NCBI GenBank assembly: GCA_000146045.2
Contig: BK006941.2
Span: forward strand, 96,001 to 160,000
DNA: 64,000 nucleotides
Source: TPA_inf: Saccharomyces
Lineage: Eukaryota
Direction: 5' to 3'
The position numbers were made by a program, and so were the translations under genes. The notes under the pieces were generated by a model that had not been told where the DNA came from, did no database searches, and worked only from the letters and a program-made list of their open reading frames with translations. Positions 12,158 through 19,583 of this stretch are shown here, piece after piece (the stretch's first letter is position 1; every line of letters begins with the position of its first letter).

Positions 12158-14404
12158 ATGACGAGACGTACTACTATTAATCCCGATTCGGTGGTTCTGA
12201 ATCCTCAAAAATTTATCCAGAAAGAAAGGGCGGATTCGAAAATCAAAGTTGACCAAGTTAACACATTTTTAGAGTCATCCCCGGAGAGGAGAACTCTGAC
12301 GCACGCCTTAATAGACCAAATAGTGAATGATCCTATATTGAAAACTGATACGGACTATTACGATGCTAAAAAAATGCAAGAGAGAGAAATTACTGCCAAA
12401 AAAATAGCTAGGCTTGCTAGTTATATGGAGCACGATATCAAAACAGTGCGCAAACACTTTCGCGACACTGACCTGATGAAAGAGTTGCAAGCAAATGATC
12501 CAGACAAAGCTTCGCCTTTAACAAACAAAGACCTTTTTATATTCGATAAGAGATTGTCACTTGTAGCAAATATTGATCCTCAATTGGGTACGCGCGTGGG
12601 TGTACACTTGGGGCTATTTGGTAATTGTATCAAGGGCAATGGTACTGATGAGCAAATCCGGTATTGGTTGCAGGAGAGAGGTGCCACTTTGATGAAAGGT
12701 ATATATGGCTGTTTTGCAATGACTGAGTTAGGACATGGTTCCAATGTTGCCCAGCTGCAGACTAGGGCTGTGTACGATAAGCAAAATGATACTTTTGTAA
12801 TTGATACACCTGATCTAACTGCCACCAAATGGTGGATTGGTGGGGCTGCCCATTCTGCCACGCACGCTGCCGTGTACGCCAGATTGATCGTTGAAGGTAA
12901 AGACTACGGTGTAAAAACATTCGTTGTTCCTCTGAGAGACCCTTCGACTTTCCAACTGTTAGCTGGTGTTTCCATAGGGGATATTGGAGCGAAGATGGGT
13001 CGTGACGGTATTGATAATGGCTGGATCCAGTTCAGAAACGTAGTTATCCCTAGAGAATTTATGCTAAGTAGATTTACCAAAGTTGTCCGTTCTCCAGATG
13101 GTTCAGTCACCGTCAAAACTGAGCCACAATTGGATCAAATTTCTGGTTATAGTGCATTGTTAAGTGGTAGAGTTAACATGGTCATGGATTCATTTAGGTT
13201 TGGCTCCAAATTTGCTACTATTGCTGTACGTTACGCGGTTGGTCGTCAGCAATTCGCACCTAGAAAGGGATTGTCTGAAACACAATTAATCGACTATCCC
13301 CTTCACCAATATCGTGTTTTACCACAATTGTGTGTTCCATATTTGGTGTCACCTGTAGCTTTTAAGTTAATGGACAACTATTATTCCACTTTGGACGAGT
13401 TATACAACGCTTCCTCATCTGCATACAAAGCTGCTCTGGTTACCGTGAGTAAAAAGTTGAAGAATTTATTTATTGATAGCGCCAGCTTGAAAGCCACCAA
13501 TACTTGGTTAATTGCTACACTGATTGATGAGTTGAGACAGACTTGCGGAGGACATGGGTATTCACAGTATAACGGATTTGGTAAAGGCTATGACGACTGG
13601 GTGGTTCAGTGCACATGGGAGGGTGATAATAATGTTTTATCTTTAACTTCAGCAAAATCAATATTGAAAAAATTTATCGATTCAGCCACAAAGGGTAGAT
13701 TTGACAACACACTGGATGTGGACTCATTCTCTTACTTAAAACCTCAGTACATAGGATCTGTGGTTTCTGGAGAAATAAAGAGTGGTTTAAAGGAGTTGGG
13801 TGATTATACTGAAATTTGGTCTATCACCTTAATCAAATTACTGGCACATATTGGTACTTTAGTTGAAAAATCAAGAAGTATTGATAGCGTTTCTAAGCTT
13901 TTAGTCTTAGTATCCAAATTTCATGCCTTGCGCTGCATGTTGAAAACCTATTACGACAAGTTAAACTCTCGTGATTCACATATTTCCGATGAAATTACAA
14001 AGGAATCTATGTGGAATGTTTATAAGTTATTTTCCTTGTATTTTATTGACAAGCATTCCGGAGAATTCCAACAATTCAAGATCTTCACTCCTGATCAGAT
14101 CTCTAAAGTTGTGCAGCCACAACTATTGGCTCTTTTGCCAATTGTGAGGAAAGACTGTATAGGTCTGACAGACTCCTTTGAATTACCTGACGCGATGTTA
14201 AATTCTCCTATAGGTTACTTTGATGGCGATATCTATCACAATTACTTCAATGAAGTTTGCCGCAATAATCCAGTGGAGGCAGATGGGGCAGGGAAGCCTT
14301 CTTATCATGCGCTGTTGAGCAGCATGCTCGGTAGAGGTTTCGAATTTGACCAAAAGTTAGGTGGTGCAGCTAATGCGGAAATTTTATCGAAAATAAACAA
14401 GTGA
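12158..14404 (+). CDS. POX1: peroxisomal fatty-acyl-CoA oxidase, 748 aa
   Basis: Starts MTRRTTINPDSVVLNPQKF. Acyl-CoA oxidase motifs are present (GCFAMTELGHGSNV, YAVGRQQF). Length 748 aa. Confidence 0.95.
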   Translation: MTRRTTINPDSVVLNPQKFIQKERADSKIKVDQVNTFLESSPERRTLTHALIDQIVNDPILKTDTDYYDAKKMQEREITAKKIARLASYMEHDIKTVRKHFRDTDLMKELQANDPDKASPLTNKDLFIFDKRLSLVANIDPQLGTRVGVHLGLFGNCIKGNGTDEQIRYWLQERGATLMKGIYGCFAMTELGHGSNVAQLQTRAVYDKQNDTFVIDTPDLTATKWWIGGAAHSATHAAVYARLIVEGKDYGVKTFVVPLRDPSTFQLLAGVSIGDIGAKMGRDGIDNGWIQFRNVVIPREFMLSRFTKVVRSPDGSVTVKTEPQLDQISGYSALLSGRVNMVMDSFRFGSKFATIAVRYAVGRQQFAPRKGLSETQLIDYPLHQYRVLPQLCVPYLVSPVAFKLMDNYYSTLDELYNASSSAYKAALVTVSKKLKNLFIDSASLKATNTWLIATLIDELRQTCGGHGYSQYNGFGKGYDDWVVQCTWEGDNNVLSLTSAKSILKKFIDSATKGRFDNTLDVDSFSYLKPQYIGSVVSGEIKSGLKELGDYTEIWSITLIKLLAHIGTLVEKSRSIDSVSKLLVLVSKFHALRCMLKTYYDKLNSRDSHISDEITKESMWNVYKLFSLYFIDKHSGEFQQFKIFTPDQISKVVQPQLLALLPIVRKDCIGLTDSFELPDAMLNSPIGYFDGDIYHNYFNEVCRNNPVEADGAGKPSYHALLSSMLGRGFEFDQKLGGAANAEILSKINK

Positions 14405-14624
14405 GTAGAGGTTTCCTGTTTTCCTTCGAACCCTCTGTTTTGCGACTTTTGTTTCAATTCAACTAGTGTCGCCAAGTTTTAACAAAAAGTTACAAAATCC
14501 TAGTGAGAGGCCATCTTATGTGCATAACGGTACTCTCTATCTATTTACATATCTAATACTATTCACATAACTATGACGAATCAATGACATGACTACATTT
14601 ACCAATGTATAGTAGTAAAAAAAT

Positions 14625-14696
14625 TGCCATCTCCTAGAATCGAACCAGGGTTTCATCGGCCACAACGATGTGTACTAACCACTATACTAAGATGGC
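14625..14696 (-). tRNA. tH(GUG): tRNA-His (anticodon GUG), 72 nt, no intron
   Basis: Reverse complement reads GCCATCTTAGTATAGTGGTTAGTACACATCGTTGTGGCCGATGAAACCCTGGTTCGATTCTAGGAGATGGCA. It has an A box (TAGTGGTTAG), a B box (GGTTCGATTC) and a GTG anticodon loop. This matches remembered yeast tRNA-His. Confidence 0.9.
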
Positions 14697-14796
14697 AGGT
14701 AATTATTGAGTGTTTACTCAATATCTCAGAATTATATACATAACAAATAATAAATGTGCTGTGTTGGCACTTGTTGGAATGAAGCTCTAAAACATC

Positions 14797-15505
14797 ATGA
14801 TGATTGTGTGGATTCTGATGTAATTGTTGGGATTCCATTTTTAATAAGGCAATATGTTGGAACGAGAGTAATTAATAGTGACATGAGTTGCTATGGTAAC
14901 AATCTAATGCTTACATCGTATATTAATGTACACATCGTATACGTTTAAGTGTGATTGCGCCTATTGCAGAAGGAATGTTAAACGAGAAGCTCAGACAATA
15001 CTGAAGCTGTGTTAAAGACCTATTAGCTGAACATGATATGGTAGGTACATATATGAGGAATATGAGTCGTCACATCAATGTATAGTAACTACCGGAATCA
15101 CTATTATATTGGTCATGATTAATATGACCAATCGGCGTGTGTTTTATATACCTCTCTTATTTAGTATAAGAAGATCAGTACTCACTTCTTCATTAATACT
15201 AATTTTTAACCTCTAATTATCAACACAATAATATTAGGTATGTAGATATACTAGAAGTTCTCCTCCAGGATTTAGGAATCCATAAAAGGGAGTCTGCAAT
15301 TCTACACAATTCTATAAATATTATCATCATCGTTTTATATGTTAATATTCATTGATCCTATTACATTATCAATCCTTGCGTTTCAGCTTCCACTAATTTA
15401 GATGACTATTTCTCATCATTTGCGTCATCTTCTAACACCGAATATCATAATATACTAGTAACGTAAATACTAGTTAGTAGATGATAGTTGATTTTTATTC
15501 CAACA
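14797..15505 (-). mobile_element. solo Ty1 delta LTR, about 332 bp of delta sequence split by a nested LTR insertion
   Basis: Right part 15231..15505 is the reverse complement of canonical delta (…TGTTGGAATAAAAATCAACTATCATCTACTAACTAGTATTTACGTTACTAGTATATTATCATATACGGTGTTAGAAGATGACGCAAATGATGAGAAATAGTCATCTAAATTAGTGGAAGCTGAAACGCAAGG…). Left part 14797..14853 is the reverse complement of the delta 3' end (…TTGCCTTATTAAAAATGGAATCCCAACAATTACATCAGAATCCACACAATCATCA). The element lies upstream (5') of the minus-strand tRNA-His. Confidence 0.8.
14854..15225 (+). mobile_element. solo Ty4 tau LTR (372 bp) nested inside the delta; 5-bp TSD CAATA at 14849-14853 and 15226-15230
   Basis: Begins TGTTGGAACGAGAGTAATTAATAGTGACATGAG and ends TCTAATTATCAACA, i.e. 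TGTTG…CAACA termini, about 371 bp, matching my memory of tau. The flanking delta sequence is continuous once the element and one copy of CAATA are removed. Ty4 makes 5-bp duplications. Confidence 0.65.
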
Positions 15506-15706
15506 GTTTATCAACTAGTAGTCACACTACCAATATATTATCATATACGGTGTTAGAAGATGACATAAGGTATGAGAAGCTTTCATCGAAGGTAGAGGAA
15601 GCAGAAATACAAGGATTTATAATGTAATAGGGTAATGGAACATATAAGGGAGGAGAAATGATGGTGATATTAATATGCAGAAATATCGATTCCATTTTTT
15701 CAAAAA
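15506..15706 (+). mobile_element. 5'-truncated delta-like LTR fragment, about 200 bp, abutting the Ty1 delta
   Basis: GTTTATCAACTAGTAGTCACACTACCAATATATTATCATATACGGTGTTAGAAGATGACATAAGGTATGAGAAGC… aligns to positions ~27-230 of the LTR at 18939-19269. The first ~26 nt are missing. Similarity ends near GTAGAAATATCGATTCCATTTTT. Confidence 0.6.
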
Positions 15707-16005
15707 AATAGTGCCAAACTATTAAGAAGTAGCGAAACAGCAAAGGCATATTTCCACATTTCGCTTTTAGCAATATACATAACTATGGTGGCAAGATACC
15801 ATGCAACTAATAACTTTGCCGCAATGACACCTCTATTTCTACTTGTTGTCGTTTTACCTCTTACTTGTTTGAACATTGCTGTTCTAAGACCTAACAATAA
15901 TAGTCCTAATACAAACAGAGGGCATGCTGTTATAAGTATAAAATGTTTGCTGTAACTAATGGTGGGGGAAGATTGCAAAAAACGAAGGATATCAGTTCCA
16001 TTCAT
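15700..16005 (-). CDS. small hypothetical membrane ORF, 101 aa, two predicted TM helices; position corresponds to YGL204C
   Basis: [43 protein letters not shown]…[28 protein letters not shown] lies between the LTR cluster and KEX1. Its 3' end runs into the truncated LTR. No recognisable domain, so coding status is uncertain. Confidence 0.3.
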
Positions 16006-18938: not shown

Positions 18939-19269
18939 TGTTGGAATAAAAATCAACTATCGTCTATAAACTAGTAGTCACACTACCAGTATATTATCAT
19001 ATACGGTGTTAGACGATGACATAAGGTATGAGAAACTGTCATCGAAGTTAGAGGAAGCTGAAGTGCAAGGATTGATAATGTAATAGGATAATGAAACATA
19101 TAAAACGGAATGAGGAATAATCGTAATAATATTATGTAGAAATATCGCTTCCCCTTTGAGGATTCCTCTACCCTCGAGGAGAACTTTTAGTATATTCTGT
19201 ATACATAATATTGTAGCCTTGATCAACAATGAAATGCCTACAATCATCTTAAAATTCACCAATCTCTCA
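18939..19269 (+). mobile_element. solo delta-like LTR (diverged Ty1/Ty2 family), 331 bp, about 220 bp upstream of tRNA-Lys(UUU)
   Basis: TGTTGGAATAAAAATCAACTATCGTCTATAAACTAGTAGTCACACTACCAGTATATTATCATATACGGTGTTAGACGATGAC…TTCACCAATCTCTCA has TG…CA termini and the conserved ATATACGGTGTTAGA block. Flanking 5-mers (GATCC / GCTCT) are not identical, so no intact target-site duplication. Confidence 0.75.
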
Positions 19270-19487: not shown

Positions 19488-19583
19488 TCCTTGTTAGCTC
19501 AGTTGGTAGAGCGTTCGGCTTTTAAGCGCATTTGCTTAAGCAAGGATACCGAAATGTCAGGGGTTCGAGCCCCCTATGAGGAG
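19488..19583 (+). tRNA. tK(UUU): tRNA-Lys (anticodon UUU), 96 nt, with 23-nt intron at 19526-19548
   Basis: TCCTTGTTAGCTCAGTTGGTAGAGCGTTCGGCTTTTAA[GCGCATTTGCTTAAGCAAGGATA]CCGAAATGTCAGGGGTTCGAGCCCCCTATGAGGAG. It has an A box (TAGCTCAGTTGG), a B box (GGTTCGAGC), an acceptor stem TCCTTGT/ATGAGGA and a TTT anticodon. The intron sits one nt 3' of the anticodon. Confidence 0.9.

Follow-up and report, generated by a model that had tools for sequence, protein, structure and literature searches.

The window analysed here, a stretch of 64,000 nt, carries the gene order SIP2–SPT16–CHC1–POX1–tH(GUG)G1–YGL204C–KEX1, together with ARO8 and MCM6. The genes were identified by the Pfam domains of those called near an exact match to POX1, and by source names like 'Pox1p [Saccharomyces cerevisiae]'; the stretch belongs to the left arm of Saccharomyces cerevisiae chromosome VII. 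A stack of Ty long terminal repeats (LTRs) lies between the tRNA-His gene and YGL204C. An initial annotation made from the letters of the sequence had placed this stack in the 5′ flank of the tRNA gene, and ARAGORN and Rfam confirm the placement, because the tRNA at 14624-14697 is encoded on the minus strand. The features of the stack and its two borders are as follows.

14624-14697, minus strand: tRNA-His(GUG), tH(GUG)G1 (ARAGORN; Rfam RF00005 at 14625-14696, 61 bits)
14772-14797, plus strand: delta0, read here as the 5′-terminal 26 nt (LTR ~1-23) left from an old delta-type LTR
14798-15505, minus strand: delta1 (YGLCdelta1) as a whole, a Ty2-type solo LTR split by tau
14798-14854, minus strand: 3′ portion of delta1, LTR 332-276, which includes the left CAATA
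14850-14854, no strand assigned: left copy of the tau target-site duplication CAATA, read directly
14855-15225, plus strand: tau (YGLWtau1), a solo Ty4 LTR of 371 bp inside delta1
15226-15230, no strand assigned: right copy of the duplication CAATA, read directly
15226-15505, minus strand: 5′ portion of delta1, LTR 280-1
15506-15698, plus strand: delta2 (YGLWdelta2), an old Ty1-type solo LTR fragment (TY1-LTR 24-226, 82.8%, E = 9.5e-53, blastn)
15700-16005, minus strand: YGL204C, an ORF of 101 aa (ORF listing; Pfam PF23480 on the called gene)

Measured from the 5′ end of tRNA-His (14697), delta0 starts 75 nt upstream, the tau insertion site lies at 157 nt and delta2 ends at 1001 nt. The stack therefore occupies the zone, within ~750-1000 bp upstream of a Pol III gene, into which Pol III-targeted Ty integration falls.

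Reference LTRs for Ty1-Ty5 were taken from File S1 of Carr, Bensasson & Bergman 2012 (PMC3511429) and compared with the locus by blastn and global alignment. The innermost element had been described as tau-like, and it matches TY4-LTR 1-371 (X67284 262-632) over 371/371 nt without gaps (366/371 identical, 98.7%, 647 bits, E = 0.0). It begins TGTTGGAACG and finishes TTATCAACA, giving the termini TGTTG...CAACA (TGTTGG...ATCAACA), and it is bounded, as the same reading had it, by perfect 5-bp copies of CAATA at 14850-14854 and 15226-15230. That reading had also set the element at 14854-15225 with a length of 372 bp; the element stands, with its start and length corrected to 14855-15225 and 371 bp, base 14854 being the last A of the left CAATA. 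Five substitutions separate tau from the Ty4 reference, two of which form an adjacent AC/CA swap common to all strains. The Ty4 LTR sequence in GenBank X67284 reportedly goes back to Janetzky & Lehle in 1992. Tau resembles that LTR in length (371 bp), in its TGTTG...CAACA ends, in its 5-bp duplication, in lying upstream of a tRNA gene and in its 98.7% identity; it differs in being solo, with the internal domain and primer-binding site missing, and in the five substitutions. No part of a Ty4 internal domain (primer-binding site TGGCGACCCCAG..., gag-pol) was found beside tau, and since delta1 sequence directly adjoins both of its ends, tau is a solo LTR. A scan of viral contigs with the tau 5′ end for a full-length Ty4 returned 0 matches.

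The element that tau interrupts had been placed at 14797-15505 and called a Ty1 delta. The interruption is real, the start belongs at 14798, and the family assignment has to be changed. The half at 14807-14854 matches TY2-LTR 323-276 (97.9%, E = 1.8e-17, blastn), and the half at 15226-15505 matches TY2-LTR 280-1 (97.9%, E = 6.8e-137, blastn); global alignment carries the first of these beyond the blastn end at 323 to TY2-LTR 332 at 14798. The halves overlap on TY2-LTR 276-280, which is exactly the 5 duplicated bases. When tau and one CAATA are removed in silico, the rejoined delta aligns with TY2-LTR 1-332 at 321/332 positions (96.7%) and without a gap, so that the end-to-end alignment that had been predicted for it is obtained. 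Against TY1-LTR the rejoined element reaches 83.1%; delta1 is therefore Ty2-type and not Ty1, and it is also labelled TY2 by Carr et al. 2012. Its terminal 9 nt (14798-14806) contain 4 mismatches to the Ty2 reference (TGATGATTG versus TGAAGAGAA), while the element elsewhere is ~98% identical.

These alignments bear on whether the delta sequences on either side of tau once formed a single element. Delta fragments are frequent in this flank (delta0 and delta2, for instance, as well as the scraps found upstream of tK(CUU)), and tau could on that ground be imagined to have entered between two separate, unrelated pieces. The two pieces, however, share their orientation and subfamily (97.9% each) and meet at TY2-LTR 276-280 with the duplicated 5 bp; moreover, three strains carry the element uninterrupted, and these empty-site alleles already refute a reading as separate fragments, whose probability we put at practically nil. 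Tau is thus nested in delta1: the halves are colinear and in the same orientation, the only overlap between them is the duplication, and intact alleles exist.

Other strains were compared by fetching loci through exact protein look-up (POX1, YGL204C and variants) and applying the same LTR library to each. The comparison covered 15 other S. cerevisiae assemblies, of which two were short-read contigs reaching over only part of the locus, together with one assembly of S. eubayanus. The Logan short-read contigs L002 and L018 end at the tRNA or within LTRs and so do not genotype the site. The outgroup was retrieved via POX1, YGL204C and KEX1 homologues (90% clustering), which yielded S. eubayanus only and not S. 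paradoxus. The structures found were these, with L017 treated separately below.

L001, L003, L004, L006, L007 and L011: structure the same as in the window
L012, L014 and L015: tau absent; delta1 uninterrupted, CAATA present once
L008: a further delta inside tau with the duplication TATAT, giving a delta in tau in delta1
L010: a Ty1 solo LTR inside tau, with the duplication TTAAT
L009: inside tau (position 41/42), a Ty1 LTR adjoined by its primer-binding site; the Ty1 is probably full-length
L013: a Ty3 sigma (100% identity to the reference LTR) with the duplication TTGAG, lying 9-13 nt from the tRNA-His 5′ end on the upstream side (window 14706-14710)
L016: a Ty3 LTR adjoining a truncated delta1, with a deletion of delta2 and of the YGL204C 3′ end

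At least 7 structural alleles are present across the 15 S. cerevisiae assemblies, which shows that the site is still active. In L008, L009 and L010 natural strains carry three-level nests. Ty3 integrates at the Pol III start site, and the position of the sigma in L013 fits this; the insertion looks like a very recent Ty3 event at that start site. The S. eubayanus locus (L005) has its own independent LTR, on the plus strand ~185 bp upstream of tRNA-His, and is uninformative on delta0 and delta2.

Tau occupies the same site with the same CAATA duplication in L001, L003, L004, L006, L007, L011 and L013, and therefore traces to one insertion event. A misassembly was rejected on account of these seven independent assemblies, to which L013 adds only its sigma. 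The tau alleles differ at 1-4 sites between strains. The strain comparison that had been recommended as a check on the tau insertion revealed presence/absence polymorphism: in L012, L014 and L015 tau is missing and the intact delta contains one CAATA, and over 127 nt the L012 sequence does not differ from the one rejoined in silico.

That the delta was inserted first and Ty4 second had been deduced beforehand from the nesting, and both lines of evidence uphold it: the delta1 halves are colinear, and alleles without tau have an intact delta1 with one CAATA, so that delta1 preceded tau. One could suppose instead that the strains without tau once had it and lost it, either when the two CAATA copies recombined or through gene conversion by another Ty2 LTR, in which case the population data would be silent on the order. 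Differences of 3-4 sites between the tau alleles of different strains mean that the insertion is not extremely young, and L012 has the reference delta1 haplotype yet no tau. Nesting alone fixes the order, however, through the colinear halves around tau and their 5-bp overlap. An exact deletion by way of 5 bp of homology is much rarer than a site that never carried tau, and tau is lacking on at least two delta1 haplotypes, one in L012 and another in L014 and L015. Furthermore, tau belongs to a recently active Ty4 clade and was scored as polymorphic (Carr et al. 2012, PMC3511429). We consider secondary loss very unlikely and retain the order of delta1 before tau.

On the side distal to the tRNA, delta1 abuts delta2 head to head, and the pair forms a 131-nt inverted repeat (I1). 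Delta2 lacks LTR positions 1-23 and 227-338, its LTR homology ending at ~15698, and it is 86% identical to YGLWdelta3 at 18962-19152. A third LTR had been described here as diverged, 5′-truncated and head to head with the delta, at 15506-15706. Its divergence and orientation hold; its end lies at 15698 rather than 15706, and it is truncated at both ends rather than at the 5′ end only.

The remaining element, a scrap between the tRNA and delta1, had been given as 33 bp at 14764-14796. In the reference alone the scrap has no significant LTR similarity past the 9-mer TGTTGGAAT (93/300 shuffles reach the score of the scrap), and, TGTTGGAAT apart, the 100 nt that separate the tRNA from delta1 resemble the LTRs no more closely than chance would allow. 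The case for an LTR remnant comes from the allele of L017 (GCA_949124795.1), which lacks both delta1 and tau. In this assembly ...TGTTGGAATGAAGCTCTAAAACATCA is followed by 36 nt absent from the reference, and these are followed in turn by an intact 5′ end of delta2 (positions 1-23), with TGTTGGAATAAAAATCAACTATC joined to GTTTATCAAC... at the junction. From TGTTGGAATG onwards, 62 nt of L017 run colinearly along TY2-LTR 1-60 (score 28, against a maximum of 22 in shuffles, 0/1000), and the extra 36 nt alone are in register with LTR 24-60 (score 20, shuffle maximum 18, 0/1000). The delta1-free allele is represented by one long-read assembly, L017; the short contig L018 covers only the right part.

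Considered on the reference alone, the scrap could be AT-rich intergenic DNA in which TGTTGGAAT happens to occur, leaving three elements rather than four. Nothing past the 9-mer is significant there (tail p ~0.07-0.33), and an identical 9-mer occurs by chance inside POX1 at 14064-14073. Against this, the scrap sequence, up to ...AAAACATCA, is followed in L017 by a delta0 continuation whose 36 nt keep the register of LTR 24-60, a fit matched by 0/1000 shuffles, and a chance origin is accordingly improbable. Since the L017 continuation of the scrap is colinear with an LTR, we take the scrap to be a genuine LTR remnant, delta0, at 14772-14797. The original proposal of an LTR remnant thus survives, through the L017 allele only, with a different extent. 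Delta0 is kept in all strains examined.

The L017 segment at 3656-3999 (reverse-complemented; equivalent to window 14772-15698) consists of tandem 5′ stubs, namely delta0 (1-60), delta2 (1-65) and a hybrid Ty1 LTR (1-226). This arrangement points to repeated insertions in one and the same orientation, near LTR position 60-65, with each new copy then recombining with the remnant.

Comparison with L017 also informs how delta1 arose. No target-site duplication flanks delta1, the adjoining 5-mers being CATCA (14793-14797) and GTTTA (15506-15510). In the reference, delta1 replaces 59 nt of L017, comprising delta0 positions ~24-60 and delta2 positions 1-23. The lack of a duplication and the replacement of 59 nt argue that delta1 is a product of recombination or deletion and not of simple insertion. 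Delta1 is a delta, and its present state would need an additional recombination or deletion; the simplest account is that two Ty2 elements 59 bp apart recombined, or that one insertion was accompanied by a flanking deletion. Two other routes were rejected. Homologous recombination of a cDNA with delta0 or delta2 is ruled out by the opposite orientation of delta1, and a single insertion followed by in-register slippage between delta0 and delta2 predicts, in each of its versions, a retained 5-bp duplicate, which is absent.

The delta1/GTT junction of the reference recurs in L016, which represents a wild lineage that has diverged, and delta1 is therefore old, but not universal. The break points of delta1 fall at the same LTR position (~23/24) in both delta0 and delta2, a coincidence that may be due to chance (roughly 5%). 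It is conceivable, though doubtful, that delta1, which at least one diverged lineage of S. cerevisiae lacks, replaced exactly one 59-nt repeat unit between two tandem 5′ stubs in a register that reflects a preferred Ty2 target in delta sequences or recombination-assisted entry, and not plain integrase insertion.

From the inside outwards, divergence from consensus rises from 1.3% in tau to 3.3% in delta1, 17% in delta2 and ~25-30% in delta0, and this outward increase matches the order obtained from nesting and the population data. We regard it as almost certain that the stack comprises four solo or partial LTRs left by successive Ty integrations upstream of tH(GUG)G1. No Ty internal sequence is left in the window stack, so full-length intermediates and LTR-LTR recombination are inferred. 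In the sequence of events that we propose, old delta-type elements in plus orientation would have left delta0 and delta2, now truncated and 70-83% identical to consensus. One or two minus-orientation Ty2-type elements would then have entered and collapsed to the solo delta1 with the loss of 59 nt, and that loss would explain why delta1 has no target duplication. Ty4 next integrated in delta1, 157 bp upstream of the tRNA, duplicating CAATA, and would finally have been cut down to the solo tau by recombination of its two LTRs.

Much of this locus has been annotated before. In Files S2 and S3 of Carr et al. 2012 (PMC3511429), YGLCdelta1 appears as chrVII_st84-_TY2 (110811-110858 and 111230-111509), a solo, inactive element fixed in 11/11 strains (SGRP). 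YGLWtau1 is chrVII_s164+_TY4 (110859-111229, 'REannotate_1-nested_LTR'), a solo LTR of an active clade, present in 6/9 SGRP strains and polymorphic, and YGLWdelta2 is chrVII_st85+_TY1 (111510-111702), solo, inactive and fixed in 17/17 strains (Carr et al. 2012, PMC3511429). The five LTR features of the window map to sacCer2 coordinates at one constant offset, window + 96004. The SGD and Carr 2012 annotation agrees with ours on families, orientations, nesting and tau polymorphism; the nesting, the family assignments and the polymorphism were therefore already known (Carr et al. 2012, PMC3511429). The differences are of detail. RepeatMasker ends delta1 at LTR 323 (14807) in that annotation, whereas we follow it to 14798; the 26-nt delta0 remnant does not appear there; delta1 is given as 'fixed' in the 11/11 SGRP strains, whereas the L017 assembly lacks it; and neither the missing target duplication of delta1 nor the 59-nt replacement is mentioned. 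Our additions are thus minor: the true 3′ end of delta1, delta0, the missing duplication with the 59-nt replacement, one delta1-free allele and further nested alleles.

The arrangement is readily understood in terms of Pol III targeting. Binding of the Ty1, Ty2 and Ty4 integrases to the Pol III subunit AC40 tethers integration to ~1 kb upstream of Pol III genes. Hotspots of Ty1 and Ty2 upstream of such genes, with nested Ty clusters, are said to have been described by Kim et al. in 1998, and AC40 tethering reportedly by Bridier-Nahmias in 2015 and Asif-Laidin in 2020. IN1, IN2 and IN4 interact with AC40, and Ty1, Ty2 and Ty4 prefer sites upstream of Pol III genes (PMC7459421, PMC10050235). On the strength of this literature, integrase–AC40 tethering would direct insertions to the tRNA-His flank; with the same ~1 kb targeted repeatedly, new copies would land in older ones, and LTR-LTR recombination would then remove the internal domains and leave solo LTRs. 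As at known Ty1/Ty2 hotspots, the LTRs here lie within ~1 kb upstream of a tRNA gene with new copies inside older ones, and in other strains the spot has received further Ty1, Ty2-type and Ty3 copies. We see no difference in kind from those hotspots, of which this locus is one ordinary example. It is a clean textbook case of how Pol III tethering concentrates insertions that nest and decay to solo LTRs, and the combination of nesting with population polymorphism yields a relative chronology, which makes the locus useful as a marker, if unsurprising.

Delta2 also borders a coding sequence. The TGA stop of YGL204C begins 1-2 nt past the 3′ break of delta2, and in L016 the 3′ end of YGL204C is deleted along with delta2. 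A homologue search recovered YGL204C from S. cerevisiae only (4 clusters), and no ORF was called at the YGL204C position of the S. eubayanus locus. YGL204C may be a recent ORF, confined to this species, with an LTR scar setting the limit at its end.

Further LTR remnants lie upstream of two other tRNA genes in the window.

18939-19269: YGLWdelta3, ~220 bp upstream of tRNA-Lys UUU, 87.9% identical to the Ty1 LTR
19488-19583, plus strand: a tRNA reading as tRNA-Lys UUU, intron-containing (Rfam 52.9 bits; missed by ARAGORN in its bacterial setting)
25164-25237 and 26089-26141: short delta scraps upstream of tRNA-Lys(CUU) 26268-26342, equivalent to chrVII_st87 and chrVII_st88 of Carr et al. 2012 (PMC3511429)

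In the YJM strains L003 and L004, an extra Ty2-type solo delta with the duplication TTAAC (13204-13533) lies between YGLWdelta3 and tK(UUU), at a site (~19330) that is empty in the window. The copy in L003 shows yet another variant of the LTR end.
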